DNA of 64,000 nt, from NCBI GenBank assembly GCA_021780375.1, contig JAJXYT010000111.1, forward strand, positions 10,809 through 74,808. Direction: 5' to 3'. Shown piece by piece: positions 38,360 through 53,292 of this stretch. Origin of the DNA: a bacterium. Its GTDB lineage: Bacteria > Verrucomicrobiota > Verrucomicrobiia > Limisphaerales > UBA11358. A program made the position numbers and the translations under genes. Position 1 is the stretch's first letter. The number at the start of each line of letters is the position of its first letter. The notes beneath the pieces are model-generated. The model was not told where the DNA came from. It worked only from the letters and a program-made list of their open reading frames with translations, and did no database searches.

Positions 38360-39560
38360 AAGGTTTCTCCGGCATTTCGAGCACGACGAATTCGCCGCTG
38401 CGACCGGCGGCGAGCCAGCGGTTGTCGTCAGAAATAGAAATGCCATAGACGTAAGCGGGGCCGTCACTAAAACGCAGCCGCCCGGCTTCCTTGCCCGTCG
38501 CCGTTTCCCAGACGCTGGCGGTGGTGTCGCCCGAACTGGACGCGAGCCGGGAAGCGTCCGACGAGAACGCCAGTGCCACCACCCAGTTCTTATGCGCGTT
38601 AAGAAAACGCAAGCATTTCCCTGAGTCCGTGTCCCAAATGCCGATGTTGTAGGGCGCGTAACCCACGGCGCATAATTTCCCATCACGGCTCATGGCGACG
38701 GAAAGCGGGCCGGAACGATATTTCTCGTCCGCCAGCTCGCGCAGCGTGTGCCCGGTCTCGGCGTCGAGTAATGCGACGGCACCTTCGCGAACCACAGCCA
38801 GGGTTTTTCCGTCGCCCGCAAATGAGACCGCCTGGAAGTCGCAACGCCCGATTTTGCCGGCCCAGAGTTTCTCCCCGTTCGTGGCGTTCAGCATCAGGAG
38901 TGATTCGTCCGGTTTAATCCATGCCCGGTTCGTGCCGTATTTCCCGTTGCAGGCGCAGACCAACCGCGAACCGTCGGGAGTGACCGCCAGCGCCGTTACG
39001 GGCCAGCCCTGCCAATCAAATACCTTTCGGGCGCCGGTTGAACCTTCTTGCCAGACAAAAAGAGAACCCCGTTCCGTCCCGGCGAAAATTTTCATGCCGT
39101 CCTTCGAGGTGGCGAGGCAGCGGGCTGCGTCATCGAGTCCGCCGAGGGTGGCCTCGACTTCGCCTTCGGGCAGCCGGAGGAGTTTCACCTGACCGTCGTC
39201 CTGAGCAACAGCCAGGCGGCGCGTGCCGGGCAGGAACAGCAATTTCGAATTAAAGGCCTCGTCCTTTGACCGGAAGACTTCCTTCAGGGCGAGCGCCGCG
39301 TCTTCGGCGTGTTGCTTCTTCAACTCCGCGGCGCGTGCTTCCATTTCCGGCAACTCCGGGCCGAGCGCCTCGTAAAGGCGGTCGATGCGCTTCGTCTGCC
39401 CGGCCAGTTGCTCGCGAAGCAGGCGGATTTCGTCCGCAGAGTTTGGTGCGGCAGGATTTCCGGTCCCGGCCAACACCGGCAACGGGCCGAATACGCCGAT
39501 GATCATACCGAGCAAGCCGACAAGCTGGCGCAACTTTTTACCGGCAGTCCTGGTTTTCAT
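38346..39560 (-). CDS. exported WD40/beta-propeller repeat protein with N-terminal coiled coil
   Basis: Signal peptide. Coiled-coil segment LRLLREQLAGQTKRIDRLYEAL...AAELKKQHAED. Repeated ..G...A.S.DG..LA....D..I.(L/W).. units. Confidence 0.75.
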   Translation of the reverse strand: MKTRTAGKKLRQLVGLLGMIIGVFGPLPVLAGTGNPAAPNSADEIRLLREQLAGQTKRIDRLYEALGPELPEMEARAAELKKQHAEDAALALKEVFRSKDEAFNSKLLFLPGTRRLAVAQDDGQVKLLRLPEGEVEATLGGLDDAARCLATSKDGMKIFAGTERGSLFVWQEGSTGARKVFDWQGWPVTALAVTPDGSRLVCACNGKYGTNRAWIKPDESLLMLNATNGEKLWAGKIGRCDFQAVSFAGDGKTLAVVREGAVALLDAETGHTLRELADEKYRSGPLSVAMSRDGKLCAVGYAPYNIGIWDTDSGKCLRFLNAHKNWVVALAFSSDASRLASSSGDTTASVWETATGKEAGRLRFSDGPAYVYGISISDDNRWLAAGRSGEFVVLEMPEKPYENR

Positions 39561-39603
39561 GTTTTCCCTCCCGTCGGGTTGCGACGGTTACGGCGGTGCT
39601 CAT

Positions 39604-40209
39604 TCAGTTCCGGTGCTTCAACTGTGTTGGTTCTTCCCAGGCGTTCGTGTTGTTGACGTATTTGAGTATGAACCGCTGCAATTCCTTTGTGTCGGCAGTC
39701 AGAATAATCCGACCACCCTGTTCGTCCCCGGCTTTTTCGCGCAACACCATGTGCCGGATTGCGTTGGGGTGGTTCTTCACCAATTTGGCGAGCCAATCGT
39801 AATTCAGGTTGGCCGTTTCGAGTACCGGCCCGATTCGTGTGACTTTGGACACCTGATGAACCGGCACAAAGTCCAGCGAACGATTGGTGGGGAAAGAATC
39901 CAAAAACAACTGTTGTTTCAGACGAAACAGGTGCACTTCCATGCTGTTGGTTTCGTGCCCGCCAAATACGGTCGCCCAATATCCCTTCTCACCCAACGAT
40001 TCGATCTGCACATATTCGGCGGGCTGATTGGTCGTGCCGGCTTCCACCCATTCGCCGATCAGCGCCGGGTCGAAGACCAAATCTTTGTCCGTGTAATACG
40101 GATAGATGGAGGTGACGACGCAGCCGGCAAAGAACATCATGATTGCGAACAACGCCGCCACCGTGAAGGTGATGCGGCCCGATAGCTGGTTCAGGATTCG
40201 TATTTTCAT
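39604..40209 (-). CDS. hypothetical lipoprotein / membrane-anchored protein
   Basis: N-terminus ITFTVAALFAIMMFFAGCVV. No known domain recognised. Confidence 0.65.
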   Translation of the reverse strand: MKIRILNQLSGRITFTVAALFAIMMFFAGCVVTSIYPYYTDKDLVFDPALIGEWVEAGTTNQPAEYVQIESLGEKGYWATVFGGHETNSMEVHLFRLKQQLFLDSFPTNRSLDFVPVHQVSKVTRIGPVLETANLNYDWLAKLVKNHPNAIRHMVLREKAGDEQGGRIILTADTKELQRFILKYVNNTNAWEEPTQLKHRN

Positions 40210-40277
40210 AATTTACCTTTCATTTTTGCTTTCGGGACGTGGGCGGTGCCACTTTCTCGAAAAATCATTGACTGTTT

Positions 40278-41777
40278 CTACGCCGCGAGCTTTCGTTCCG
40301 GCCGTACCGCGTCCAGCCTCCGCTGTGCGGCGACGGAGGACGGGTGCCGGCCAAAATTCGGCGATGTTTTCAACATGCGTTTGAATTCTGCGCGGCGTTC
40401 GTGCGTTTCCTCCGCGGAGTAAAGCTGCTTCACCAGTTTCAGAAACCCGCTCTGCAATCCGGCAACGCTCATCTTTTTCGGCTGGAAATTGATATCGAAC
40501 AAAGTGCAAAGCTCCCATGCGTTGTCGCGGAGGATGCGGCCTTCCTTTCTCAGCCGCGCATAAAGCGGGGTGCCCGGAAACGCGGTTTGGAACGTCACCT
40601 GCACTTCGTAAAGTCCGGAGTCGCGCACGAAATCCAGCACGTCGTCGAAAGTTTCCGGTGTGTCACCGTCGAGGCCGAGGATAAAACAGCCGTTGACGGT
40701 GATGCCGTAAGACTGGATTTTGGCGATGGCTGTTTTGTAATGTTCCTGCTGGCGAGCCTTCCAGTTGTGTTTGAGTTCGATACCGTTGAGATTGGCACGG
40801 CGCGGGCTTTCCAGGCCGATGAGCACCTGCTGGCAGCCGGAATCGCGCATCAGACCGAGCAATTCGTCGTCCTCCGCCACGCTAATGTCGGCTTCGGTGA
40901 ACCAGCGGACATTTTCCTCCGCCAGTTCGCGGAGCAGTTTTTTGTAATGCGCGTGATGGACAAAGCTGTTGTCGTCGGCAAACTCGATGAACGGCTGGGA
41001 CCAGATTTTTTTAATCTCGCGGATTTCGGCGATGGCTTTTTCCACCGGCTTCACCTTGTAACGCGGCGTCAGCAGAATGGAACTCGCGCAGAACTCGCAG
41101 CGGTGCGGGCAGCCGCGGCTCGTTTGCACGGTCAGGCGGTTGTATTTTTGCGGCGCCAGCAAATCAAAGCGCGGCATCGGCGCGTCGGCCAGGTCAAATT
41201 CCTTCTTCGGCGTGTAAAACGGTTTCAAATCGCCGCGCTCGAAATCCGCGAGTACTTCCGGCCAGAGCAATTCACCTTCGCCGATGACAACGCTGGTGCA
41301 GTGCTCCTTGGCCTGCTCGCGCAACGACGACACCGTGATGCCACCCATGATGACGGGAATTCCTCGCGTTTGGTAAAAATCCGCAACGTCGCACGCCTCG
41401 TAAAATTGCGCCGTGAAGGTGCTGAGGGCGACGAGGTCAAAGTCGGTCGGCAGATCCAGCCTGAAGGTAGCGCGGCCGTCCCCGGCTGCGGGTGGAGGCG
41501 GCGTCTCGCCGCCATTGCCGTTGCCGGGCGGGTCGCCCGGCGAACCCGCAGGCGGGACGCCTGCGCTACGGCGCCAATCAGCGATTTCGTGGTAGGCGAT
41601 TTCAAATCTGTCCGGCGTCAAGCCGGCGAGGGTGAGCAGGCCGAGGCTGGGCAGGGAAGCGATGATTTTATTGCGGTCCACGAAGCCGGGCAGGGTGAGG
41701 CCGAGCCGGGTGAGTTCCTCGTTATGGGCGCGGACGCCGCTCATGGCGATGAAAGCGATGTGTTTTTTTGTATTCAT
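40278..41777 (-). CDS. B12-binding-domain radical SAM protein
   Basis: Start at MNTKKHIAFIAMSG, with an ATGA overlap with the upstream gene. The CX3CX2C motif is SRGCPHRCEFCAS. The N-terminal cobalamin-binding-like domain is interrupted by the low-complexity stretch PPAGSPGDPPGNGNGGETPPPPAAGDG. The ORF-track extension to 42125 overlaps the upstream gene. Confidence 0.8.
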   Translation of the reverse strand: MNTKKHIAFIAMSGVRAHNEELTRLGLTLPGFVDRNKIIASLPSLGLLTLAGLTPDRFEIAYHEIADWRRSAGVPPAGSPGDPPGNGNGGETPPPPAAGDGRATFRLDLPTDFDLVALSTFTAQFYEACDVADFYQTRGIPVIMGGITVSSLREQAKEHCTSVVIGEGELLWPEVLADFERGDLKPFYTPKKEFDLADAPMPRFDLLAPQKYNRLTVQTSRGCPHRCEFCASSILLTPRYKVKPVEKAIAEIREIKKIWSQPFIEFADDNSFVHHAHYKKLLRELAEENVRWFTEADISVAEDDELLGLMRDSGCQQVLIGLESPRRANLNGIELKHNWKARQQEHYKTAIAKIQSYGITVNGCFILGLDGDTPETFDDVLDFVRDSGLYEVQVTFQTAFPGTPLYARLRKEGRILRDNAWELCTLFDINFQPKKMSVAGLQSGFLKLVKQLYSAEETHERRAEFKRMLKTSPNFGRHPSSVAAQRRLDAVRPERKLAA

Positions 41778-42160
41778 AGTTTTGTTACCTCCCATAAAGT
41801 CAAAATCCCGCCGGTGATGAGGCTCACCACGGGCACGGCAAAAATCAGGTGTGCCCTCGGAAAATGCGCCATGACGATGCAGCAAACCGGCGTGGTGATG
41901 GCACCAATGATGAAAGCCCATGACGCGATTTCTACGTGTAATTCCGCCGGAGAAATTGTTTGCAGTGTCAGCCAGAACAGCAGATTCACCGCGCCGAGGC
42001 CGAAGCAGGAAATGTGGCCGAGCCGGTACATCCGGCGTTTGAAGCTGCCATAACCGCCCAGCCAGTTTTCGTGGTGGAAGAACAAGCCCAGCACCAGGCC
42101 GGTCCCCAATCCGAGCAAAATCCACAGCCAGGCGAGGAAAAGATTTGGATTAGATTTCAT
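41774..42160 (-). CDS. small integral membrane protein (4 TM), hypothetical
   Basis: MKSNPNLFLAWLWILLGLGTGLVLGLFF... Hydrophobic throughout. Translationally coupled to the radical SAM gene. Confidence 0.65.
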   Translation of the reverse strand: MKSNPNLFLAWLWILLGLGTGLVLGLFFHHENWLGGYGSFKRRMYRLGHISCFGLGAVNLLFWLTLQTISPAELHVEIASWAFIIGAITTPVCCIVMAHFPRAHLIFAVPVVSLITGGILTLWEVTKL

Positions 42161-42196
42161 TTGAGTGTTTCTGATTGCCTGTTACAAACTTATGGG

Positions 42197-42607
42197 ATGA
42201 AACCCGCCAAAGAAAAGTATTATCGGGGTCTCTTCACCATCGCCGCCTTTTACGACCTGCTGCTCGGCGTCACGTTCACCTTCTTCCCGGCGCGGGCCTT
42301 TGCCGCGCTGGGCATCAGCGAAAAGCTGCCGGCGTTCGGCGGCTATGTCACGCTGCTGGGCGCCTTCCTGCTGGTAATTGGCATCGCCTACGCGTTGATT
42401 TCGCGCGGCCATCTGCGGTGCAACGGGGATTTGATCCTCGTGGGCACGCTTTACAAACTGGCCTATTCGGCGACGGCTTTTTATTACTGGGCGGCGGGTA
42501 CGCTGCCGCACGTCGCGTTCGGCGCGCTGTTCGGCGTGGCCGATGCAGTCTTTTTCGTCCTGATGGCCGAGTGCTGGCTCTGCCTCAAGCGGGAAACCAG
42601 AACCTGA
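42197..42607 (+). CDS. small integral membrane protein, hypothetical
   Basis: Internal ATG of ORF 41960..42607: MKPAKEKYYRGLFTIAAFYDLLLGVTFTFF... Four hydrophobic segments. Confidence 0.6.
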   Translation: MKPAKEKYYRGLFTIAAFYDLLLGVTFTFFPARAFAALGISEKLPAFGGYVTLLGAFLLVIGIAYALISRGHLRCNGDLILVGTLYKLAYSATAFYYWAAGTLPHVAFGALFGVADAVFFVLMAECWLCLKRETRT

Positions 42608-42639
42608 ATTGAAATTGGTTTTCATTTTGAAAACGAGGT

Positions 42640-43230
42640 TCAATAAATGATTTGGAACAGCTTGAACGCCAACCAGCCGAGCAATGCACCGGCGGGCAGG
42701 TCCACGACATAATGTTGTTTGGTGAACAGGCAGCTCAATGCGATCAGCAGCGGAAACGCGACCATCACGGGACCGAAGGACGGATACAGATGCAGTGCGG
42801 TCAGCGTGGCCACCGAAGTATGCATGCTGGGGAAGCTGTTTGAGCGCCCGTCAAAACTTTGAACGAAGGCGAGAAACCGTTCCGACTGTCCCCGGCCCGA
42901 GACAGCGGCACGCCATTCCGCCGGGGTTGTGACCGGAAGAAAGATGAAGAAAGCCATTTGAAATCCAAGCAGCAGCATGTAGCTGATGGCCACGTAGAGA
43001 AATTGGCGCGGTGAGGTGACGGTCCAATTGATGGCGACGATGACAGGGTAATAGAGGAAGCTGTAAATCCACACCCAGCGCGGGCGATACGGGATGCGGT
43101 CGTCAATCGGCAGCCGGAATTCGCGCGGCGACGTCACGTAGTTCCGCTGGCACCAGAAATAAAACTGGTAAACGCCCACGATGAGAAACGCGCTGACCAC
43201 GAGTTGGACGAGACGGTCAATCGGTTGCAT
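42640..43230 (-). CDS. PAP2-superfamily membrane protein lacking the C1 motif (sphingomyelin/IPC-synthase-like phosphotransferase type)
   Basis: C2 motif FPSMHTS and C3 motif HYVVDLPAG are present. There is no KxxxxxxRP motif. About 6 TM segments. Confidence 0.7.
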   Translation of the reverse strand: MQPIDRLVQLVVSAFLIVGVYQFYFWCQRNYVTSPREFRLPIDDRIPYRPRWVWIYSFLYYPVIVAINWTVTSPRQFLYVAISYMLLLGFQMAFFIFLPVTTPAEWRAAVSGRGQSERFLAFVQSFDGRSNSFPSMHTSVATLTALHLYPSFGPVMVAFPLLIALSCLFTKQHYVVDLPAGALLGWLAFKLFQIIY

Positions 43231-43303
43231 GGCTAATGGCGGTTAAGGGCTTGGTCATCCGGACTGTTCCTGCCACACTTATACCGCGGCTGGCGGGCGG
43301 CGG

Positions 43304-43342
43304 GTTAAATGATAAAACATTTGCAACATCGGCTGGATCAAT
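43304..43342. promoter_or_regulatory. conserved intergenic element, copy A
   Basis: GTTAAATGATAAAAC-atttgca-ACATCGGCTGGATCAAT. It lies 74-112 nt upstream of the PAP2 gene start. Confidence 0.6.
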
Positions 43343-43380
43343 CGCTAACTTCATTGGGAATTGCCCTTTTGGCTTCATGG

Positions 43381-44115
43381 TTAAAACTTGAAGGTCAAGG
43401 CCATCAGGACCGAGTGCGTCATGGTCCCGTCTGATTCGAATTCAGTCGGGTTGCCATTAGAATCGAAGCCTGGTCCGACGTCGTGGTCGGTCGTGCCGAG
43501 GAACTTGTAGGCAACGCCAATATCCCACCGGTCGTTGATCGCGTATTTGATGCCCGCCAGGCCCTGGAAGCCAAACGTCGTATCGCTCGCAGTCGTTCCG
43601 CCGAATTCGTTGCTATAATCGCTGAAGACTCCGCCGATACCGCCGCCGACATAAGCCGAGAAATGGCGGCCCAGCGGTTGTGTATAGATCACGTTGACCA
43701 TGATGGGAAGCTCGACCCAATCGACTTCCATGAAATCGGTTCCGAGGAAGAACGAGTTTTTGACCTGATTGACGATGAGGCCGATTTCCAGTTCGGCAGC
43801 CCAATTTTTAGTGAAGTTGTATCCGAAATCGAAATCCAGTCTTGCCCCGGGATCAAACGTCACCTTCTCGCTGTCGCCAATGGGGTCGCTCATGGTGATG
43901 TCCTGTTGCCAGGCAGGACCGAGGTCGAAGCTCAGATACACTTTGCCGCTCAGCGGCGTTGCATAATAACGGCCCGGCATTGTGCCGGTTGGCGCGCCGG
44001 AGTACGGCGTATCGTAGTAGGCGGGCCAGTACGGTTGCGCCTGAAGGCATGATGCGGAGTTTGCCAGGGCAAGTCCGGCAACCCCGGCGAGGATTTTAAT
44101 TCGGATTGTTTTCAT
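43381..44115 (-). CDS. outer-membrane beta-barrel protein (OmpA-N/OmpW-like small barrel)
   Basis: Signal peptide, alternating-hydrophobic strands, Gly/aromatic-rich sequence, and terminal ...ALTFKF. Confidence 0.75.
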   Translation of the reverse strand: MKTIRIKILAGVAGLALANSASCLQAQPYWPAYYDTPYSGAPTGTMPGRYYATPLSGKVYLSFDLGPAWQQDITMSDPIGDSEKVTFDPGARLDFDFGYNFTKNWAAELEIGLIVNQVKNSFFLGTDFMEVDWVELPIMVNVIYTQPLGRHFSAYVGGGIGGVFSDYSNEFGGTTASDTTFGFQGLAGIKYAINDRWDIGVAYKFLGTTDHDVGPGFDSNGNPTEFESDGTMTHSVLMALTFKF

Positions 44116-44206
44116 AGGTTCAGCGGTTTGAGTTTTCGGTTATGGTTATGGTTTTGTCCGACATTGGTGTTTCTGCCTGTCTTGTAACTCCATTGGCCAT
44201 GCAGGT

Positions 44207-44246
44207 GTTAATTGATAAAACTTCGGCGAACATCGGCTGGCTCAAT
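44207..44246. promoter_or_regulatory. conserved intergenic element, copy B
   Basis: GTTAATTGATAAAAC-ttcggcga-ACATCGGCTGGCTCAAT. It lies 92-131 nt upstream of the OMP gene start. Confidence 0.6.
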
Positions 44247-44280
44247 GAGCGGTCTCTCCCTCGGATTTTCAGCGCGTTCG

Positions 44281-45129
44281 TCATGGCAAAGCGCCTCCCA
44301 AACCGGCCAGGCCGCGGAGCCTGCGGCGCAACCACAGCCGGGTGAAACGGACGGTCAGCAGAAGTTTGTCGCTCCGACGGCGGGTATGAAATTTCCTGGC
44401 TGGCGATTCGCAGGCGGACAGCGCAATGACTTCCTCCCGGGCCACCGCCGCAATCCGGCGCCAGCCGGCGGCGTGATTGGCGACGGTTTCAAAAGTCATC
44501 GGTGCTCCGATTTGCAGAACGATTTTTCGGGGGCGCACTGCGCGGGCCTCGGGCGGCATCGCGGCAAAACTACCCGACAGACGGCATGGCAAGACCGGGA
44601 TGGCGGTTCCGGCAACGAGCGTGGCAAAGCCCGACTTGAACTCGTGCAGTTGGCCGTCCCGGCTGCGGCTGCCTTCGGGAAACACAATATAAATGGCCTG
44701 CTGATTGATCAGCCGCCCGCGCAAATCGCCGAGTTCATGACGCTGGCCGCCACGGCGGTTGCGCCAGACAGGCAGCGCATTGAGAATCACCGCCGAGAAA
44801 CCGGCGAGCGGCGGCGTGGCAAAAAAATAGTCGCCGGCGGCCAGTGGCGAAACCTGGTCGCGCCAGCGCGCCGAAAGCGCCGAGGCCAGCACGACCGTGT
44901 CCAAGTGGCTGGAATGATTGGCCACGATGACGAATGGCGGTTGCGCGGGCAGATTTTCCAGGCCGCAAATTTCCAGGCGGTTCCAGCATTTAAGAATGGT
45001 CCGCACCGTCATCAGCCAGCCCAGGCGCAGCACGTTGGAAGTCAAATCCGATTCACGGAGCGGACTGCAATGGCGTTCTTTGGTTTGCAGTCCCAGGTCG
45101 CGCGCCGAAAGGTATCGCCAGTCGTTCAC
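44281..45129 (-). CDS. lysophospholipid acyltransferase (PlsC/LPLAT family)
   Basis: HX4D motif VANHSSHLDT and the FPEGSRSRDG block. Confidence 0.8.
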   Translation of the reverse strand: MNDWRYLSARDLGLQTKERHCSPLRESDLTSNVLRLGWLMTVRTILKCWNRLEICGLENLPAQPPFVIVANHSSHLDTVVLASALSARWRDQVSPLAAGDYFFATPPLAGFSAVILNALPVWRNRRGGQRHELGDLRGRLINQQAIYIVFPEGSRSRDGQLHEFKSGFATLVAGTAIPVLPCRLSGSFAAMPPEARAVRPRKIVLQIGAPMTFETVANHAAGWRRIAAVAREEVIALSACESPARKFHTRRRSDKLLLTVRFTRLWLRRRLRGLAGLGGALP

Positions 45130-45131
45130 GA

Positions 45132-46139
45132 TCAGCCTCCGGTGAGGATCCGCATTGGCTGGTTTTGGCCCAGCGGACCCAGTTCATACGACAGAAAATG
45201 ATAAACGGCCGGGGGAACCAGCACGAGGCTGTCAAAACGGTCCAGCCAGCCGCCGTGTCCGGCGATGCAGACGCCAAGGTCTTTTACGCCGAGGTCGCGT
45301 TTGATAGCGGACAGAATCAGGTCGCCGAGCTGGCCGAGCAGGCTGATGAGCAAGCCGAGCTTCAGCAACGAGAAGTCATTGCCCATCGCCGTTCCGGCAA
45401 AAATACTTTTCCCCATCCCTGTTACCAGTGCCGTGGTCAGAACCAGCGCGCCGAGGGAGCCGGCAACGGTTTTGCCGGGACTGATGTTCGACAATAATTT
45501 GCGGCCGCCGAAAATTTTTCCGACGCAATAGGCGAAAATGTCGTTCAATTCCACGCTCAACAGCACGAGGATGAGCAGGGGACGGTAGTGCGAATCGTTG
45601 GCCATCAAGCCGAGATAGCCGATGGAATAGCCGAAGAGCAAAAAGCCCAGGATGCCGAGCGAGACACGCTGGAGGTAGCCTTGGGGGCGGTTTTCCGGCA
45701 GCGTGACCATGGCGATGACGCCGCTGGTCAGCGCGGCCAGTGAAAAATACATCCGGTCGTAGTGGTCCACGTTGGCGATCCCTAGCGCGAAGATGCCGAC
45801 CAGGACGACGGCGACGATCGGGAATTCGCGGAACAGTCCGGTGGCGCGGGCGAATTCCTGGAAGCAAAACCAACTCAACACCGCCACCGCGATCATGACC
45901 CAGGCCGCGCCCAGCAGAATCGGGCCAACCATTGCCGCGGTCAGCCACAACCAGGATTTCCAGCGCCGCCAGAGTTCTTCGTGTAACTGTGGTGAAATGA
46001 CGTTGAGCCTCGACAGCGCGTGAATCACCAGCGGCGCGAGGGCGAGCGCCGCGAGAATGCCCGTGACCGCGCAGACGGTGACCGGATGGTCAAAGGCGGT
46101 ACGCCAGCCAAACAAATGTTGCCAGGCCGTGGAGTTCAT
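45132..46139 (-). CDS. cdsA: phosphatidate cytidylyltransferase
   Basis: Polytopic membrane protein with C-terminal signature SAIKRDLGVKDLGVCIAGHGGWLDRFDSL. Confidence 0.85.
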   Translation of the reverse strand: MNSTAWQHLFGWRTAFDHPVTVCAVTGILAALALAPLVIHALSRLNVISPQLHEELWRRWKSWLWLTAAMVGPILLGAAWVMIAVAVLSWFCFQEFARATGLFREFPIVAVVLVGIFALGIANVDHYDRMYFSLAALTSGVIAMVTLPENRPQGYLQRVSLGILGFLLFGYSIGYLGLMANDSHYRPLLILVLLSVELNDIFAYCVGKIFGGRKLLSNISPGKTVAGSLGALVLTTALVTGMGKSIFAGTAMGNDFSLLKLGLLISLLGQLGDLILSAIKRDLGVKDLGVCIAGHGGWLDRFDSLVLVPPAVYHFLSYELGPLGQNQPMRILTGG

Positions 46140-46840
46140 TTTTTGATCGGGTAGGATTGGGAGACTTCACCGGCGATTCGTTTTAGCCGGCGGAACACGG
46201 TAACGATCCCGCCTGACACGATGGCGGCCAGTCCGAACGACATCAGACCGAAAGGGTTATTTCCAATTTGCACGAGCGGCTGCCAGCCGGCCGGCGTCAA
46301 CCCGCAATACAGCGAGATGAGCAGAATTACCACCATGCGCCCCGGCTTGGCCATCGGGCCGCAGTAATGTTGCATTGCACCGGTGACTTTGCCTTCGGCG
46401 CGGACGTAAGCGACGAACACGGCCGTGAGCGCCGCGCTGAATCCGAGCGCCGGGTTTCCGCCGGCGGCGTATCCTGCGCCCACCAGAACCGCCATGTCGG
46501 CCAAGCGGTCCGGGATTTCGTTGAATAACTCGCCGAACGGCGAGGCTTTTCCACTGCCCACCGCGACCATGCCGTCGAGGAGATTTCCCATGCCGCGCAC
46601 CACGATCCCGGCGACGGCAAGGAGGAACAGGAGTTGGGGCAGCGCCAGCCGTTGTGTCGCGGCAAGCGCCAGTCCGGCCCCGATGCCGCCAGCCATGCCC
46701 GCCAGCGAAATAACGTTCGGCGATACCTTTCGGGCGATGAGCCAGCGGGCGAATTGTCGGGAAATGTTCCAGTCGCGTGTGAACATCGGACGGCGTTCCG
46801 GCGCAACGATGGGCGTTGAGATGATTTGGTTTGTTTTCAT
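46136..46840 (-). CDS. CDP-alcohol phosphatidyltransferase family protein
   Basis: Start at MKTNQIIS, with an ATGA overlap with the upstream gene. The motif DG(x)2A(x)8G(x)3D(x)3D appears as LDGMVAVGSGKASPFGELFNEIPDRLAD. Confidence 0.8.
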   Translation of the reverse strand: MKTNQIISTPIVAPERRPMFTRDWNISRQFARWLIARKVSPNVISLAGMAGGIGAGLALAATQRLALPQLLFLLAVAGIVVRGMGNLLDGMVAVGSGKASPFGELFNEIPDRLADMAVLVGAGYAAGGNPALGFSAALTAVFVAYVRAEGKVTGAMQHYCGPMAKPGRMVVILLISLYCGLTPAGWQPLVQIGNNPFGLMSFGLAAIVSGGIVTVFRRLKRIAGEVSQSYPIKK

Positions 46841-47190
46841 GATGTTCTCCCCAGCAAATACATGCCGCCGATGAGCAATGCCATGCCGGCGACGTTGGCA
46901 GCGGAAATTATCCGGCCATACAACACGTGTTCGATGAGCGCGGCCCAGATGAATGTCGTGGCATACAGCGGATAGAGCGCACTGGGCGAAGCCTTCTGCT
47001 TGAACGCGGCCACGAACAGCACCATCACCGCAACGTAACAACACGCGCCCACCAGAATCCGGCTGTTCAATAAATAACTTTGGAGGGTCCCGCGCGTCCG
47101 GTCGGCGCCGGCCTTGTAAAAGAATTGTCCGACCGCTCCCAGCACCGAAGCGAACAGGAAGCAGAGAATGGCCAGCGGCGTGGTTTTCAT
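46837..47190 (-). CDS. small DMT-superfamily (EamA/ArnE-like) membrane protein
   Basis: MKTTPLAILCFLFASVLGAVGQFFYK..., about 4 TM segments. ATG 47190 is preceded by GAGG. The track starts at GTG 47199. Confidence 0.65.
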   Translation of the reverse strand: MKTTPLAILCFLFASVLGAVGQFFYKAGADRTRGTLQSYLLNSRILVGACCYVAVMVLFVAAFKQKASPSALYPLYATTFIWAALIEHVLYGRIISAANVAGMALLIGGMYLLGRTS

Positions 47191-47225
47191 TTGCCTCACA
47201 CTTTAAGCGCGCTTGCCTTGCGGGC

Positions 47226-47265
47226 GTTAATTGATAAAACTGGCGGCATCATCGCTACAACCAAT
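47226..47265. promoter_or_regulatory. conserved intergenic element, copy C (fills the divergent LysR / lipid-operon spacer)
   Basis: GTTAATTGATAAAAC-tggcgg-CATCATCGCTACAACCAAT. The final AT.. runs into the LysR ATG at 47264. Confidence 0.6.
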
Positions 47266-48157
47266 GAACATCCATCACTTGGAGTTGTTCTATTACGTCG
47301 CCCGTCATGGCGGCATCATGCCGGCGGTGCACAACATCCCCTACGGCATCCAGCAACCCGCGGTCAGTTCCCAGATTGCCCAACTTGAGGAATTTCTCGG
47401 CGCGACGTTGTTTCAGCGCCGGCCGTTTGCGCTGACGCCGGCGGGCCAGGCGCTGTACGATTACGTCAAGCCGTTTTTTGACAACCTGGATCCGGTGGCC
47501 GAGAAAATCCGCGGCGGCGTTTCCCAGCACCTGCGCATCGCCGCGTCCGAAACAGTGCTGCGGGAACATCTGCCGGTGATGCTGCAGGAGCTGCGGCGGC
47601 CGTTTCCGAAGTTGAAGGTGACGTTGCGCGAAGGTTATCATCCGGAGGTTGTCACCTGGCTGCAACAACGGGAAATTGACGTGTCTCTCGGACTGGTTGG
47701 CAACAAGCCGCCCCCGGGCGTGAACGCCTTGCCCTTGTTCAAACTGCCGCTGGTATTGCTCGTCCCGAAAACGAGCAAGCTGAAATCCGCCCAGGAACTC
47801 TGGGAACGCGATCCGATCGGGGAATCACTCATCACGGTGCCGAGCAACGAATTTATCAGCCGTGCGTTCCAGGCGGGGTTGGCGAAACTCGGGGTGGACT
47901 GGTTCAGCCGGATTGAGGTCAATTCCGTCGAAATTGTGCAAACGTATGTTGCCAACGGCTACGGCATTGGCGTGACCGTGGGCGTGCCGAAGATGAAGAT
48001 CCACCCGCAGGTGCGGGTGCTGCCGCTCGAAGGGTTCGAGCCGGTCAAATTTGGCGTCCTCTGGCAGGGCGGAAAAAATCCCCTGCTCGAGGCCTTTCTC
48101 AAAATTGTCCAGGCCACCGCGCGCCGGTTGCTGGCCGGAGAAAACCTGGACTTGTGA
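47264..48157 (+). CDS. LysR-family transcriptional regulator
   Basis: MNIHHLELFYYVARHGGIMPAVHNIPYGIQQPAVSSQIAQLEEFLG (LysR HTH) plus a substrate-binding domain. The first ATG in the frame was used. Confidence 0.85.
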   Translation: MNIHHLELFYYVARHGGIMPAVHNIPYGIQQPAVSSQIAQLEEFLGATLFQRRPFALTPAGQALYDYVKPFFDNLDPVAEKIRGGVSQHLRIAASETVLREHLPVMLQELRRPFPKLKVTLREGYHPEVVTWLQQREIDVSLGLVGNKPPPGVNALPLFKLPLVLLVPKTSKLKSAQELWERDPIGESLITVPSNEFISRAFQAGLAKLGVDWFSRIEVNSVEIVQTYVANGYGIGVTVGVPKMKIHPQVRVLPLEGFEPVKFGVLWQGGKNPLLEAFLKIVQATARRLLAGENLDL

Positions 48158-48444: not shown

Positions 48445-49524
48445 ATGCAAATGGGTTTGCCATTTCTGAACGGTGTCGCGGGAAAAAGCCGGAACCAAAT
48501 GATCTCGGTTGATCTGGGGAGCCGCACGACGAAGGCCGTGCTTTTGGAGCGGCGGGGAGAGGGTTTTGCCCTGACTCGTTATGCGTTGCTGGACGCCCCG
48601 ATTTTCGAAAAAATCCTTTCGCCGGAATTGCTGGCGGAACATCTGAAAACCATTTGTGAAACATTGGAAGCCAGAGCCAAGTTGGTGACCTTGTCCATTG
48701 GCGTAAATGACGCCATGGTGCGAACGGTGGAACTGCCACTCATACCCGTGGACGAGATGCGCCTGGTGTTGAAAAACAACACCCGCGGTTATCTACAACA
48801 GGATTTGCCCAATCGCGTTTTCGACTGCCATATTATTCCGATCAAACCGCTGCCCAAACCTGCCGACGCCGGCAAAACCCCGTCGCTCTCCAAAGTGAAA
48901 GTATTGGTGGCGGCTGCCGGAAAGCAGTTGATCGGCGATTTCCAAAGCGCGGTCGGGGAGGCGGGGCTTGTGGCGGACCACATCGTGCCCGGTCTGATTG
49001 GTCCGGTGAATGCTTTTGAGATGGCCATGCCCGAAGCGTTCGCCAGCGACTCCGTTGCGCTGGTGGATATCGGATTCAAACACTCCTCGATCGCCCTCCT
49101 GCATCAAGGTGAACTGGCATTAAGCCGGGTGGTGGGGATCGGCGGCGACAAATTGACAGCCGGTTTGGCGGAGGCGATGAATATCAGTTACGCCGAGGCG
49201 GAGGGGATTAAAATAGGCATGGCTCCGGAAATTCAGTCCACCCTGGAAACGCAAGTATTGCCGCTCGGCCGCGAATTGCGGGCGTCCCTTGACTTTTTTG
49301 AACATCAACAGGACCGGCCGGTCTCGCATGTTTATGTCAGCGGTGGTTCCGCCCGGTCGGAACTCATCCTGCAAATGCTGCACAGCGAGTTGATCGCAGA
49401 ATGCAAGGCCTGGAATCCGACGACCTTCCTTCAACTGGCATTGCCGGAACAGCAGACGGCCGAGCTTGAACACGTCGCGCCGCAACTCACGGTAGCCATC
49501 GGTGCTGCGATGGCCGCCTTTTAA
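48445..49524 (+). CDS. pilM: type IV pilus assembly protein PilM
   Basis: Actin-like ATPase fold blocks ISVDLGSRTTKAV, VDIGFKHSS and YVSGGSA. Followed by pilNOPQ-like genes. Confidence 0.85.
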   Translation: MQMGLPFLNGVAGKSRNQMISVDLGSRTTKAVLLERRGEGFALTRYALLDAPIFEKILSPELLAEHLKTICETLEARAKLVTLSIGVNDAMVRTVELPLIPVDEMRLVLKNNTRGYLQQDLPNRVFDCHIIPIKPLPKPADAGKTPSLSKVKVLVAAAGKQLIGDFQSAVGEAGLVADHIVPGLIGPVNAFEMAMPEAFASDSVALVDIGFKHSSIALLHQGELALSRVVGIGGDKLTAGLAEAMNISYAEAEGIKIGMAPEIQSTLETQVLPLGRELRASLDFFEHQQDRPVSHVYVSGGSARSELILQMLHSELIAECKAWNPTTFLQLALPEQQTAELEHVAPQLTVAIGAAMAAF

Positions 49525-49527
49525 GTT

Positions 49528-50172
49528 ATGCCGATACGCCTCAATCTGCTGGCCGAAGCCCAAGCCGCCGAAGAATTACGGCGCCGGGACCCGATCAAGC
49601 GCGTGATCTTCGGCGGGGTGCTGGTCGTGGTATTGATGTTGGTGTGGTGGAGTTGGCTCCAACTGCGGGTCATCGTCGCCAACGCGAGCCTGTCCCAGAC
49701 CAAAGCCCAGATCGAATCACACACCAATGCCTATCAAGTTGTATTGGTCGGTGAAAAAAAGATCACGGAGGCGAAGGAAAATCTGGCAGCCCTGCAAAAA
49801 TTAACCAATAACCGTTTCCTGCAAGGCAACCTGTTGAATGCCTTGCAGGAGGCCACCGTGCCCGGCGTACAGCTGGTCAGGTTGCGGGTGAACCAGGCGT
49901 ATCAGGCCAATCAAGGAACCGGGGTTCAGACCAACGCCACGATTACGGAAAAAATTGTCCTGTCACTGGATGCGGAGGACTTCAGTAGCAACCCGGGTGA
50001 TCAGGTAAACAAATTTAAAGATGCCATCAGTGACGAGCCCTACTTCCAAACCAAACTGGGCAGCGCGAATGCTGTTCGTCTGACGAACCTGTCGGCGCCC
50101 CAGGTTGATCCGAGTGGCAAAGCGTCGGTCTTGTTCAGTTTGCAGTGCGCTTATCCCGATCACACCCGATGA
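49528..50172 (+). CDS. pilN: PilN-like pilus assembly protein
   Basis: MPIRLNLLAE..., a single TM segment, a coiled-coil region, and its position after pilM. Confidence 0.75.
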   Translation: MPIRLNLLAEAQAAEELRRRDPIKRVIFGGVLVVVLMLVWWSWLQLRVIVANASLSQTKAQIESHTNAYQVVLVGEKKITEAKENLAALQKLTNNRFLQGNLLNALQEATVPGVQLVRLRVNQAYQANQGTGVQTNATITEKIVLSLDAEDFSSNPGDQVNKFKDAISDEPYFQTKLGSANAVRLTNLSAPQVDPSGKASVLFSLQCAYPDHTR

Positions 50173-50735
50173 AATTGTCCAAAGACAAACGCAATCAGCT
50201 CGCCCTTGTGCTCGTCTGCACATTGGCAGTAATCGCCATGATGTGGTTTGAGTTAATTCGGCCCCGGTACGCGGTGCTGACCCAGGTAGTCGCAAGTCAG
50301 AGTGTTGCTGAAAAAAAACTCGATGGTATTCAAACGGCCATAAAGCATGCCAACACCACCGCCGCCGAATTGACCAATGTGACGCAGACTCTGTCCGAAG
50401 CCGAGAAGGATATGGCTTCGGGGGACCTGTACTCCTGGACTTATAACACCATTCGGCTTTTTAAAGCCCGGTATCAAGTGGACATTCCGGAAATAGGCCA
50501 TCCGGATGTCGGGCCGGTGGATCTGTTTTCGTCTTTTCCATTCAAACAGGTGAAATTCACCGTTACCGGGACAGCCTATTACCATGACTTGGGCAAATTC
50601 ATTGCCGATTTCGAAAATACCTATCCGCATATTCGGGTGGTCAATCTGCAACTCCAGCCTGCTAACGCAGATGACGGTGGCGAAAAGCTTTCCTTCAAAA
50701 TGGATATCATTGCTTTGGTAAAATCCACCTCTTAG
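50169..50735 (+). CDS. pilO: PilO-like pilus assembly protein
   Basis: ATGA overlap with pilN. One TM segment (LALVLVCTLAVIAMMWF) followed by coiled-coil and ferredoxin-like regions. Confidence 0.65.
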   Translation: MKLSKDKRNQLALVLVCTLAVIAMMWFELIRPRYAVLTQVVASQSVAEKKLDGIQTAIKHANTTAAELTNVTQTLSEAEKDMASGDLYSWTYNTIRLFKARYQVDIPEIGHPDVGPVDLFSSFPFKQVKFTVTGTAYYHDLGKFIADFENTYPHIRVVNLQLQPANADDGGEKLSFKMDIIALVKSTS

Positions 50736-50760
50736 CCCACAAAACTCCTGTGAAGCGGCC

Positions 50761-51192
50761 ATGAAAAATTTTAGCGAAAAAACCATGACGGGTTTGCTGG
50801 TGATTGGCTGCGCGATGGTCCTTACGACCGGCGCCGCGCCGGCGCCGCAACGCAACATTACCCATGCGAACCGCTCAATATTCATTCTTCCGTCAAATCC
50901 CAGGGAAGGCCGCGACCCATTTTTTCCCGACTCCACCCGGCCCTATAAAATTGCCGTCGCCGCCAATCCTCGGGTGGCGGATGTGAGTTCACTGGTGGTG
51001 AAGGGATTTTCCGGCTCGATGAACCGCCGATTAGTCATCATCAACAATCACACTTTTGCCGCCGGCGATGAAGGCGACGTTGTGACTCCCGATGGCCGCA
51101 TCCATCTAAGCTGCATCGAAATCAGAACCAATTCCGTTGTGATTGAAGTTGGCGGCCAACGCCACGAACTGTTTTATTCCGACCAACTTTAA
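50761..51192 (+). CDS. PilP-like small periplasmic protein
   Basis: Signal peptide and a C-terminal beta-rich segment VVKGFSGSMNRRLVIINNHTFAAGDEG. Sits between the pilO-like gene and the secretin. Confidence 0.5.
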   Translation: MKNFSEKTMTGLLVIGCAMVLTTGAAPAPQRNITHANRSIFILPSNPREGRDPFFPDSTRPYKIAVAANPRVADVSSLVVKGFSGSMNRRLVIINNHTFAAGDEGDVVTPDGRIHLSCIEIRTNSVVIEVGGQRHELFYSDQL

Positions 51193-51423
51193 GGTCGAAC
51201 ACCAGGAGAGCCTTAAAATTTAAACCAGCGTTCATTCCGAATTTGTTTGTTCGGGAAGGCGGTTTTTTTGCTTTGAGTCTGGTTGGGCGAAATCTCCTTT
51301 TCCGGCCGGCGCGGAACGCCGGCGCTTCTCGTTAACATAAAAGTCCAGGGCTGTTTCAGGGTTGGCTCGGTATCTGCTAAGTACTTCCACCATTGGACTG
51401 AAAAACCAATAAAAACAAAAAAT

Positions 51424-53292
51424 ATGAAATCGAAACTGCTAATTGCCACGCTGTGTGCGGGACTTGTCTCGCAATGGTGGGCTATGTCTCAAACTGATAC
51501 CAACAGTGTCGCGACGAATCAGCCTGCGATGAGTGAGTCGGCCCCCGCTGCTCAACCCGCCGCCGCCTCCACTGTTGAAACCACGGCCACCGCTGCCACC
51601 AATGCTGCGGCGATGCCGGCTGCCAGCACCGACACGTCTTCCTCCAGTGCGACCAGTGGCAACGATACGGCCACTGCTGCCACGGGCAGCACATCGGCCA
51701 TGACCGCAACGAACGCGGAATCTTCCGGCGCGGAGGGCGCCAGTGAAATTGCCGGCGCCGCCTCCAACGCGCCGGTCGTGTTGCCCATTCAATTCCAGGA
51801 TGTTCCCATTACCACGGCCATCGAAAATCTGGCCCGCCTGGCGGGAATCAATTACCTGCTCGACCCGAAGATTGGTTACGGCCAGCCCGATAAAAATGGC
51901 CAGATCAAGCCGGAACCGACGATTTCTGTCCGTTGGGAAAACGTCTCCGCCCGTCAGGCGCTGTTGGCGGTGTTGGATAATTACAACCTGCAACTGACGG
52001 AAGAACCGAAAACCAAAATTGCCCGCATCAGCATCAAAAACCCCAATGCGCCGCCGCCGCTGATTACCCGGGTCATCCAGCTCAAATACTCCAGCGTCTC
52101 CAACATTATGGTCGCCGTGGAAAGCACGTTGACCGACAAGCGAAGCAGGGTGGTGGGGGATTCACGCACCAGTCAATTGGTTGTGGTTGCCACCGAGAAC
52201 GAACAAGACGCGGTGGATACGCTGATTGACCAGCTTGACAAACCCACCCGCCAGGTTTTGATCGAAACCCGCCTGATGGAGGTTTCCAGCTCGCCCAGCA
52301 CCACCAAAGGCATTGATTGGTCGGGCACTCTCAGTGCGCAAAATGTCTCCTTTGGAAATGATGCGCTTGCGGGACTGGCGCCACAAGCTGCAATTCCGGC
52401 TTCCGCCGGACCACCACCGACACTCGCACAACCGGCTACTCAAGGCATCATTGGTGGAATTCTTAACAATCCAGCCGTGCTAGCCAGTACGGCAAAAGGA
52501 TTTAATCCTTCTACGTTCTTCCTGAACGCTGATGGCGTCCGGGCGGTGCTGTCTTTTTTGAACAACGATTCCGATGCCCAAACGATCGCCACTCCTCGCG
52601 TGGTGACGCTGGACAATCAATTGGCGCATATCGAGGTTACCCGGGCCGTCCCGATCTTTGCCACCACTGCGGGTACACAAGGTTCGCCCGGCGGTTCGCA
52701 GGTGGCCTACACCAACTTGGGAACCATCCTGGATGTCACCCCGCGCATTTCCGCCAACGATTATATCTGGCTCACCGTTCAGCCGGAAGTCTCCAGTGTG
52801 TTTGACACCATCACAAAAATCGTTGCCGGGGTGGAAAACCAGGCGGACGAATATGACGTGCGCAAGGTTAAAACCCAGGTTTTAATCCCCAACGCGAATA
52901 CCCTGGTCATGGGTGGATTTATCAAGGACAACACCAAAAGCATATACACAAAAGTGCCGATCCTGGGTGACATTCCGATTCTTGGATATGCCTTTCGGTC
53001 TGAAAGCAAGGGCCTCGATAAAGATAATCTGCTGATTTTCATCACCCCGACCATTGTCAAAGACACTGACTATCAGCCGACCTCAACGGCATTCCTGCAG
53101 TCCAGTCCCCTGGGGCCCAAACCGCCCATGAATCCCAAGACCCCATGGAACAGTGCCAAGCCTTATGACTGGAGCAATCCGAAAAATACGGACCCTTATT
53201 ACGACGTAGCCAATCAACCCTCATCCGACCGGCAGGAACCCAACAATGCGACCGAACCTTCGACGATGACGAATTCGACGGTTAATCCGTGA
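51424..53292 (+). CDS. pilQ: type IV pilus / type II secretion secretin
   Basis: Start at MKSKLLIATLCAGLVS (signal peptide). Ala/Thr/Ser-rich spacer. Secretin blocks: RVVTLDNQLAHIEV, VPILGDIPILGYAFRS, NLLIFITPTIV. Confidence 0.85.
   Translation: MKSKLLIATLCAGLVSQWWAMSQTDTNSVATNQPAMSESAPAAQPAAASTVETTATAATNAAAMPAASTDTSSSSATSGNDTATAATGSTSAMTATNAESSGAEGASEIAGAASNAPVVLPIQFQDVPITTAIENLARLAGINYLLDPKIGYGQPDKNGQIKPEPTISVRWENVSARQALLAVLDNYNLQLTEEPKTKIARISIKNPNAPPPLITRVIQLKYSSVSNIMVAVESTLTDKRSRVVGDSRTSQLVVVATENEQDAVDTLIDQLDKPTRQVLIETRLMEVSSSPSTTKGIDWSGTLSAQNVSFGNDALAGLAPQAAIPASAGPPPTLAQPATQGIIGGILNNPAVLASTAKGFNPSTFFLNADGVRAVLSFLNNDSDAQTIATPRVVTLDNQLAHIEVTRAVPIFATTAGTQGSPGGSQVAYTNLGTILDVTPRISANDYIWLTVQPEVSSVFDTITKIVAGVENQADEYDVRKVKTQVLIPNANTLVMGGFIKDNTKSIYTKVPILGDIPILGYAFRSESKGLDKDNLLIFITPTIVKDTDYQPTSTAFLQSSPLGPKPPMNPKTPWNSAKPYDWSNPKNTDPYYDVANQPSSDRQEPNNATEPSTMTNSTVNP

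Follow-up and report, generated by a model that had tools for sequence, protein, structure and literature searches.

A probable ynbAB-type accessory lipid cassette next to a separately conserved B12 radical SAM trio in a Verrucomicrobiota genome

Positions 40278-47190 of a 64-kb stretch of a Verrucomicrobiota genome (hereafter the window) hold a group of genes for predicted lipid enzymes together with a gene for a B12-binding radical S-adenosylmethionine (SAM) enzyme. Among public genomes, metagenome-assembled genomes of Limisphaerales are the nearest to the window. In the original prediction, these genes were read as one lipid pathway to which the radical SAM enzyme is coupled. We suggest that this 7-kb stretch instead consists of juxtaposed independent units, which we hold to be fairly probable: an accessory cassette related to the Escherichia coli genes ynbA and ynbB, and a separate trio made up of the radical SAM gene and the genes of two orphan membrane proteins, p136 and TM4. 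All nine genes that had been listed for the region are present as open reading frames (ORFs), and a check of their strands against the earlier list found them as stated.

The cassette consists of four genes on the minus strand, from 47190 down to 44281. The first encodes a small DMT/ArnE-like membrane protein with four predicted transmembrane (TM) helices (46837-47190; 117 residues from the ATG at 47190, with the frame open as far upstream as a GTG at 47199). Downstream of it come a YnbA-like phosphatidyltransferase with a variant CDP-alcohol-transferase motif (46136-46840, 234 residues), a YnbB-like paralog of the CDP-diacylglycerol (CDP-DAG) synthase CdsA (45132-46139, 335 residues) and a PlsC/Aas-like glycerolipid acyltransferase (44281-45129, 282 residues, GTG start). 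That these genes overlap or abut can be read directly from the DNA: ATGA overlaps join the DMT-like gene to the transferase gene (46837-46840) and the transferase gene to the CdsA-like gene (46136-46139), and a gap of 2 nt separates the CdsA-like stop from the PlsC-like GTG start at 45129. Promoter and terminator predictions were not used to define operons, because a scan of 39500-47500 gave no more sites than shuffled controls.

Two sets of loci were compared. For the cassette, the alignment of the transferase family was scanned against 185,579 species genomes, which gave matches in at least 558 species, and the best 80 loci were compared. For the radical SAM enzyme, a scan of metagenome contigs gave 80 loci with 66-82% identity (L087-L166). 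In the first set, the order and orientation of the four genes are kept in about 70-78 of the 80 species loci, covering at least six phyla, and wherever the cassette is present its gene order and strand are constant. The CdsA-like gene lies directly downstream of the transferase gene in about 76 of these loci and the PlsC-like gene is third in the cassette order in about 68, while in 46 of 82 loci the YnbA-like gene is immediately preceded by a DMT-like ortholog. Within 10 kb of the cassette, no gene family from outside it is shared by more than 15 of the 80 loci. The gene order is thus far from a chance arrangement. The cassette is found in Limisphaerales, in Udaeobacter/Chthoniobacterales and in many Planctomycetota (including Singulisphaera acidiphila DSM 18658, at about 9.063-9.084 Mb of NC_019892, and Stieleria sedimenti), as well as in Kiritimatiellia, Acidobacteriota, Myxococcota, Hydrogenedentota and one alphaproteobacterial metagenome-assembled genome. 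In the literature, nothing relevant was found on the cassette in Planctomycetes or Verrucomicrobia, and a paper on the essential genome of V. spinosum does not mention the cassette or the neighbouring genes. The YnbA-like gene also has variant contexts in other Verrucomicrobia. In L011 (9674-10693) the DMT-like/YnbA-like pair stands alone between thiC and pckG. In the JGI contig carrying P0155, the genes ahead of the YnbA-like gene encode a 419-residue acyltransferase, a PAP2_C protein resembling sphingomyelin synthase, and two small proteins, and there is no CdsA paralog.

The radical SAM gene and the lipid genes are not co-conserved, an outcome that the original prediction itself had named as speaking against their coupling. 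The cassette is found in none of the 80 radical-SAM loci, of which 68 have at least 500 nt of upstream sequence, 26 at least 3.5 kb and 16 at least 6.5 kb. Conversely, the radical SAM gene is present in three of the 80 cassette loci (L007, L009 and L010), all from the closest Limisphaerales relatives. Contig L087 is 88-89% identical to the window at the DNA level and differs from it by a 3,019-bp insertion or deletion that corresponds to the cassette. Here, window positions 48208-47212 match L087 9-1005 and window positions 44222-41577 match L087 976-3623. L087 is without the cassette at the locus between the lysR gene and the gene of an outer-membrane beta-barrel protein (OMP), but retains the radical SAM trio.

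The two copies of a direct repeat of 40 nt, which belong to family D1 and bracket the cassette, are likewise 3,019 bp apart; they are imperfect, with 78% identity and the exact core GTTAATTGATAAAACT. Copy 1 (47215-47254) lies within the 73-nt intergenic region between the cassette and the divergent lysR gene, and copy 2 (44196-44235) between the PlsC-like stop and the OMP start. Cassette-less L087 has a single copy, which lies between lysR and the OMP gene. The cassette of L009 and L010 is found on the other side of the OMP gene, after it, with a D1 repeat again at the junction, so that cassette and OMP gene alike have the repeat ahead of them. This repeat may represent a duplication of the operator or promoter of the divergent lysR gene, or else a site of recombination. 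The LysR-family protein itself (47264-48157, plus strand; HTH_1 and LysR_substrate domains) is a candidate regulator of the units preceded by the repeat; its gene belongs to the backbone and is conserved beside the OMP, p136, TM4 and radical SAM genes, whether or not a relative carries the cassette. Taken together, the comparison supports the view that 44281-47190 is a self-contained, mobile-looking accessory unit.

Of two further genes that had been grouped with the lipid genes, one falls outside this unit and the other probably does. The OMP (43381-44115, minus strand; PF13505, 50.5 bits) had been listed within the cluster, but its gene sits between lysR and p136 in the cassette-less loci L003, L087, L088 and L092, and upstream of the cassette in L009 and L010; it is a backbone gene of the lineage and not a cassette member. 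The adjacent PAP2_3 protein (42640-43230, minus strand, 196 residues; PF14378, 59.4 bits against a cut-off of 27) had been described as C1-less and similar to sphingomyelin and inositol phosphorylceramide (IPC) synthases. This description stands, as motifs C2 (FPSMH) and C3 (QHYVVD) are present, C1 is missing (no KxxxxxxRP) and the best PDB sequence match is the IPC synthase AUR1. A role as a partner of the cassette is less likely, as an ortholog is found in six cassette-less radical-SAM loci and in just one other cassette locus; this gene, too, probably belongs to the lineage backbone. The protein also aligns with the N-terminal domain of E. coli YnbD over the C2-C3 motifs (31-33% identity, 27-31 bits). 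From this alignment, the PAP2_3 domain of YnbD and the PAP2_C gene next to the YnbA-like gene in the JGI contig, it is plausible that YnbA-type enzymes are functionally connected with C1-less PAP2 enzymes, although the PAP2 ortholog of the window lineage mostly travels without the cassette.

The transferase scores 21.2 bits against PF01066, just below the cut-off of 22, while E. coli YnbA passes at 39.2 bits. All NCBIfam scores are far below their cut-offs, with archin_ph_syn at 70.4 against 180, PIPSynth at 54.4 against 170 and the BT1523-type family at 44.9 against 350. The canonical motif D-x2-D-G-x2-A-R-x8-G-x3-D-x3-D is not matched; instead, the family follows N-x2-D-G-x2-A-[VIL]-x8-G-x3-N-E-x-P-D-R-x2-D, which in the window protein reads N86-x2-D89-G-x2-A-V-x8-G-x3-N107-E-x-P-D111-R-x2-D115. 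Compared with the canonical motif, the first Asp has become N86, the Arg V94 and the third Asp N107. Counted over the 82 members of the transferase family, Asn replaces the first and third Asp in every one and the Arg is kept in none. Four acidic residues are retained in the transferase (D89, E108, D111 and D115), and neither the variant motif nor about 60 further positions vary between phyla. Also invariant are R147, K151, K165 and R168, of which R147, K165 and R168 align with basic residues of Mycobacterium tuberculosis PgsA1.

The same variant is recognisable in E. coli. The window protein contains the segments NLLDGMVAV...GELFNEIPDRLAD and YCGPMAKPGR, the latter fitting Y-x-G-P-x2-K-x2-R, and the corresponding segments of E. 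coli YnbA are NALDGMLAR...GAILNETGDVISD and YAGPFGKSDR. The motif of E. coli PgsA is canonical. In phmmer searches, E. coli YnbA detects all 82 members (the window protein with an E-value of 2.7e-10), while E. coli PgsA detects none of them at E<=1e-3. On these sequence comparisons, the transferase can be assigned to a YnbA-like subfamily and not to a PgsA-like one, which answers how the CDP-alcohol transferase, left open between several classes in the original prediction, is to be classified. In a profile search, its best match is M. tuberculosis PgsA1, aligned over nearly the full length. The AlphaFold model (pLDDT 80) predicts a six-helix fold like that of phosphatidylinositol-phosphate (PIP) synthases: the top 11 Foldseek matches are all PIP synthases (TM-score 0.60-0.77, probability 1.00), and Staphylococcus aureus PgsA is ranked 25th. 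By profile and by Foldseek, the protein comes closest to the PIP synthases of M. tuberculosis, R. salmoninarum and M. kansasii.

The partner of this transferase points in the same direction. The CdsA-like protein scores 172 bits against PF01148, and its canonical signature, SAIKRDLGVKD...GHGGWLDRFDS, is intact. It is 44% identical to E. coli YnbB over the catalytic part, and the copy in L031 aligns with YnbB over nearly the full length (274 residues). E. coli YnbB outscores E. coli CdsA for all 78 cassette copies tested in this way. However, such bit scores were dropped as proof of orthology, and synteny was used instead, because cdsA paralogs in an operon context also slightly favour YnbB. 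In E. coli, ynbA and ynbB overlap and have the same order as the pair in the cassette. Further, the cassette is immediately preceded by homologs of ynbC (scoring up to 550 bits) and ynbD (scoring about 200-215 bits) in four Acidobacteriota loci (L045, L070, L074 and L078); L077 and L044 have only ynbD next to it. E. coli YnbC contains Hydrolase_4 and Methyltransf_20 domains, and YnbD combines an N-terminal PAP2_3-like membrane domain with a C-terminal dual-specificity phosphatase (DSPc) domain. No homolog of YnbC or YnbD is present in the window. We regard this synteny as decisive for assigning the cassette to a predicted ynbAB-type module. Relative to ynbAB in E. coli, what is new is the presence of the PlsC-like and DMT-like genes in place of ynbC and ynbD.

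The pathway is therefore less undescribed than had been proposed, as its core is homologous to ynbA-ynbB and YnbB has been studied: it is non-essential, makes CDP-DAG in vitro and does not replace CdsA for bulk phospholipid (PMC6362211, PMC7018664). Overproduction of YnbB raises the level of the glycolipid MPIase, the anchor of which is GlcNAc-PP-diacylglycerol (PMC6362211; PMC7018664). The ynbA promoter is activated by BglJ-RcsB (PMC3950696). What stands of the claim of novelty is the product of YnbA, which has not been studied; our literature search found no paper on it, nor on the function of ynbC or ynbD.

The remaining two cassette proteins can be described mainly by family. The DMT-like protein matches EamA (19.3 bits, cut-off 28.2) and ArnE (30.8 bits, cut-off 92), both weakly, and has three to four hydrophobic segments in a Kyte-Doolittle window; the sub-threshold EamA match recurs in seven of ten orthologs. 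The PlsC-like protein scores 82.5 bits against PF01553 and contains the HX4D (NHSSHLD) and FPEGSR motifs, which in the form NHxSHxD and FPEGxR are present in 63 of 70 orthologs. In NCBIfam it comes closest to the Aas-type acyltransferase domain and to the AGP acyltransferase subfamily, in both cases below cut-off.

On the other side of the PAP2_3 gene lies the radical SAM trio. Here, p136 (42197-42607, plus strand, 136 residues) is an orphan membrane protein with three hydrophobic segments (Kyte-Doolittle) and no Pfam or NCBIfam family, and TM4 (41774-42160, minus strand, 128 residues) is an orphan four-helix membrane protein. The two genes are divergent, with start codons 36 nt apart. An ATGA overlap read from the DNA (41774-41777) couples TM4 to the radical SAM gene (40278-41777, minus strand, 499 residues). 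The domains of the enzyme, PF04055 (64 bits), PF13282 (DUF4070, 38 bits) and a weak PF02310 (26 bits), together with the cluster motif CPHRCEFC, assign it a class B (B12-binding) architecture. More than 120 clusters at 90% identity contain orthologs of it, which are 75-83% identical, and over hundreds of contigs the identity is 66-83%. TM4 is found directly upstream of the radical SAM gene in 67 of the 68 loci with room for it, and by clustering the p136 family is present in 50 of the 80 loci. In relatives with a 76-77% identical radical SAM enzyme, the order is pilQ...pilM-lysR-OMP-p136-TM4-radical SAM-response regulator-CHAD-LplT/Aas fusion, with neither cassette nor PAP2. Thus p136, TM4 and the radical SAM enzyme form a separately conserved Verrucomicrobiota trio, in which the pairing with TM4 is near-universal.

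The radical SAM enzyme of the trio reaches no NCBIfam equivalog (HpnJ 101.5 against 577.6; PhpK 100 against 600; BchE 81.7 against 481) and also falls below the cut-offs of HpnR (43.7 against 650) and rSAM_ladder_B12 (65.7 against 360). Its best sequence relatives in the PDB are AprD4, whose substrate is an aminoglycoside, and MgmA. MgmA is the MCR glutamine methylase, which acts on a protein glutamine (PMC11796369). With an aminoglycoside in one case and a protein residue in the other, the nearest solved relatives give no agreed substrate class. TM4 forms a family of 428 clusters at 50% identity and is modelled by AlphaFold as a four-helix bundle (pLDDT 95.6). It has no Pfam, NCBIfam or PDB-profile match, and Foldseek of the model returned only generic helical bundles with E >= 0.09. 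Alignments with hhalign among TM4, p136 and the DMT-like protein gave no relationship. That the substrate of the radical SAM enzyme is membrane-associated is a reasonable guess but no more than that, and literature searches for a Verrucomicrobial B12 radical SAM lipid enzyme returned nothing relevant.

Some variation exists within the trio. The window enzyme carries a Pro/Gly-rich low-complexity insert (residues of about 68-108, positions 41455-41575) in a loop of the B12-binding domain. This insert is absent from most orthologs, which have 450-453 residues, and in P0001 and P0076 its length and sequence differ. In P0444, TM4 is fused to a TPR-like soluble domain of about 350 residues. In P0461, the reading frame runs from TM4 into the radical SAM enzyme, which could be a true fusion or an assembly frameshift.

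We suggest that the cassette would produce a minor, specialised lipid and not bulk phosphatidylethanolamine (PE) or phosphatidylglycerol (PG). The PlsC/Aas-like acyltransferase, judged by its family, would supply or re-acylate a diacyl lipid. The YnbB-like CdsA paralog, which is homologous to YnbB and has an intact signature, would convert phosphatidate and CTP into a dedicated pool of CDP-DAG. The YnbA-like enzyme, with its remodelled metal site (first and third Asp to Asn, Arg to Val, and a new Glu), could then transfer the phosphatidyl group to an acceptor. This acceptor would probably be a phosphorylated polyol or sugar, or another anionic compound, given that the family has invariant basic residues at the positions aligned with the inositol-phosphate pocket of PIP synthases. 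Finally, the small DMT/ArnE-like protein might flip or export the product, or import the acceptor. It can also be speculated, though we think it rather unlikely, that YnbA-type enzymes, with their co-varying replacements of Asp by Asn (and of Arg by a hydrophobic residue), do not act as alcohol phosphatidyltransferases but join YnbB-made CDP-DAG to an acceptor that itself carries a phosphate, for example a sugar-1-phosphate. The product would then be a glycolipid linked through diacylglycerol pyrophosphate, similar to the MPIase anchor, or another lipid of an unrecognised class, flipped by the ArnE-like protein. In that case, the distribution of the cassette over at least 558 species of Planctomycetota-Verrucomicrobiota-Chlamydiota (PVC) bacteria, Acidobacteriota, Myxococcota and others would reflect a widespread membrane lipid that is still uncharacterised, and the orphan ynbA of E. 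coli would gain a function.

Several other readings of the region can be weighed against that of two independent units. If cassette and trio formed one pathway, a special polar lipid would be built by the cassette and methylated or cross-linked by the radical SAM enzyme together with TM4 and p136. B12 radical SAM enzymes that modify lipids are indeed known, the obligate small membrane partners would fit a membrane substrate, and the genes are close together on the same strand in the window, L005, L007, L009 and L010. However, the cassette is missing from every radical-SAM locus and the radical SAM gene from 77 of the 80 cassette loci, L087 lacks the cassette cleanly and keeps the trio, the position of the cassette relative to the OMP gene varies between relatives, and the enzyme matches no lipid equivalog (HpnJ 101/577, HpnR 44/650, ladderane-type 66/360). 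We give a single pathway very little credence, and the co-conservation data bring it close to refuted. More conventional would be a plain plsC-cdsA-pgsA set for bulk PG, PE and cardiolipin, as the enzyme classes match the core pathway and JGI annotates homologs as phosphatidylglycerophosphate synthase. Against this stand the non-canonical catalytic motif, the failure of E. coli PgsA to detect any member, the close relatives without the cassette at this locus and a second cdsA in a classical operon in five related loci, all of Udaeobacter type, where a cdsA-dxr-rseP-ispG operon is divergently adjacent to the cassette (cdsA at L029 1868-2782, L031 8890-9930, L034 8930-9940, L040 8892-9806 and L049 2212-3126). 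The operon and cassette copies are 32% identical over the catalytic region. For comparison, cdsA of E. coli lies in the context dxr-ispU-cdsA-rseP, and the window copy is not in such an operon. Moreover, ynbB of E. coli fails to support bulk phospholipid synthesis (PMC6362211). A housekeeping set is in our view hardly credible, and the claim of a dedicated, non-housekeeping lipid cassette is supported.

Two further readings concern the transferase itself. It could be a PIP synthase, using CDP-DAG and inositol-1-phosphate or another polyol phosphate, with the PAP2_3 protein or YnbD as the PIP phosphatase. The best NCBIfam, profile and structural matches are archaetidylinositol-phosphate (AIP) and PIP synthases, the invariant basic residues align with the inositol-phosphate pocket, the phosphatase YnbD (PAP2_3-like and DSPc) accompanies the pair in E. 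coli and Acidobacteriota, and a PAP2-type gene neighbours the YnbA-like gene in another Verrucomicrobial contig. Yet the scores are far under the equivalog cut-offs (70 against 180 and 54 against 170), the metal-binding motif is altered at three conserved positions in every member, and the window PAP2 ortholog is found mainly in cassette-less loci. Nor does an inositol-1-phosphate synthase, or any other gene, recur within 10 kb of the cassette in the 80 loci, and E. coli, which carries ynbA, is not known to make phosphatidylinositol. We consider a PIP pathway unlikely. Alternatively, the YnbA-like protein could be an inactive pseudo-enzyme serving as a membrane partner or regulator, and the YnbB-like enzyme alone would make the product, as proposed for the GlcNAc-PP-diacylglycerol made by CdsA/YnbB in E. 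coli. The replacement of both Asp by Asn and of the Arg by a hydrophobic residue in all 82 members would fit this, as would the assignment of the MPIase-precursor activity to CdsA/YnbB (PMC6362211). On the other hand, the invariance of D89, E108, D111, D115, the basic pocket and some 60 other positions is typical of a selected active site, and the Arg is retained in E. coli YnbA; we find an inactive protein quite improbable.

The reading that we prefer, of a ynbAB-type accessory cassette beside an independent radical SAM trio, also has observations that weigh against it. With two of the four canonical catalytic Asp and the conserved Arg replaced, the YnbA-like protein may work by a different chemistry or lack catalytic activity. 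None of the YnbA homologs has a known lipid product, and the E. coli studies credit MPIase-precursor synthesis to CdsA/YnbB and not to YnbA (PMC6362211). In the five loci with two cdsA copies, the signature of the operon copy is degenerate (PGIGGALDLLDS), while the cassette copy is canonical with a near-universal PGHGGxLDRxDS; this weakens a simple accessory-copy reading in those five lineages, where either copy might make the bulk CDP-DAG, and is a point that a housekeeping role would explain. The comparisons cover loci and contigs, and a housekeeping cdsA of the window organism is not seen within the 64 kb, so the proposed check for a second cdsA gave an operon copy in the five related loci and none in the window; cassette-less relatives might likewise carry the cassette elsewhere in the genome. 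Finally, the distance between the cassette and the radical SAM trio is no more than 1-3 kb in five genomes of Limisphaerales (the window, L005, L007, L009 and L010), and a lineage-specific functional link between the two is possible.

The surroundings of the region were also inspected. Just past lysR, a type IV pilus operon with PilM, PilN/O-like genes and the PilQ secretin (48445-53292, plus strand) is syntenic in all close relatives. On the other side, a 1,230-residue fusion of MFS, acyltransferase and AMP-binding domains (28739-32431, minus strand) resembles the lysophospholipid transporter/re-acylase LplT/Aas. It is a conserved backbone neighbour that lies 2-3 kb from the radical SAM gene in L001 and L003 but about 8 kb from it in the window, where extra genes in between encode a 201-residue lipoprotein, a WD40 protein, an EEP-family protein, a DUF4410 protein and a 345-residue ORF. 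Rfam and tRNA scans of the whole window gave no matches, including none to a cobalamin riboswitch in the vicinity of the radical SAM gene.

If our reading is correct, the apparent super-cluster of lipid and radical SAM genes is removed and replaced by two sharper questions. One is posed by ynbA and ynbB, which have long been orphans in E. coli but are at the centre of a cassette that is conserved in hundreds of species from soil and water. Which accessory genes accompany them differs between phyla: either those for an acyltransferase and a DMT-like protein, or those for a hydrolase/methyltransferase and a phosphatase. This points to an unrecognised minor membrane lipid, for which E. coli, Singulisphaera acidiphila and Stieleria are tractable hosts for a product search. 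The other question is posed by a strongly conserved Verrucomicrobiota B12 radical SAM enzyme that is obligately paired with an orphan four-helix membrane protein.

Both units can be compared with known systems. The lipid-modifying B12 radical SAM enzymes (HpnJ, HpnR/HpnP and the ladderane-cluster enzymes) share with the window enzyme the B12 domain, the CxxxCxxC core and the DUF4070 tail, and HpnJ is its best NCBIfam match. However, its scores are 6-15 fold under all equivalog cut-offs, it has no hopanoid or ether-lipid gene context, and it is uniquely paired with the orphan proteins TM4 and p136. The PAP2_3 protein resembles AUR1 and the N-terminal domain of YnbD in belonging to PF14378 and in having C2 (SxH) and C3 (H-[YH]-x2-D) but no C1. 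It differs in being only 196 residues long, without a DSPc domain, and the similarity is confined to the C2-C3 region.

The actinobacterial PIP synthases (M. tuberculosis PgsA1, R. salmoninarum and the M. kansasii PIPS) and the archaeal AIP synthase have the six-TM fold, the basic pocket positions and DRxxD in common with the YnbA-like protein. In contrast, the metal site of the window protein is altered at three positions, its scores are far under the equivalog cut-offs, and its partner is a CdsA paralog and not PimA/PatA, with no linked inositol-phosphate synthase in the cassette loci. E. coli YnbA has the same N-x2-DG...G-x3-N-E-x2-D-x3-D and Y-x-GP-x2-K-x2-R motifs as the window protein, but it retains the Arg where the window has Val, and the identity is only about 24% over 102 residues. 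At the level of gene organisation, the closest counterpart is ynbABCD of E. coli. The window cassette is without ynbC and ynbD, but it has the overlapping ynbA-ynbB pair and a CdsA paralog with the same canonical C-terminal signature, to which a PlsC/Aas-like acyltransferase and an upstream DMT-like protein are added.

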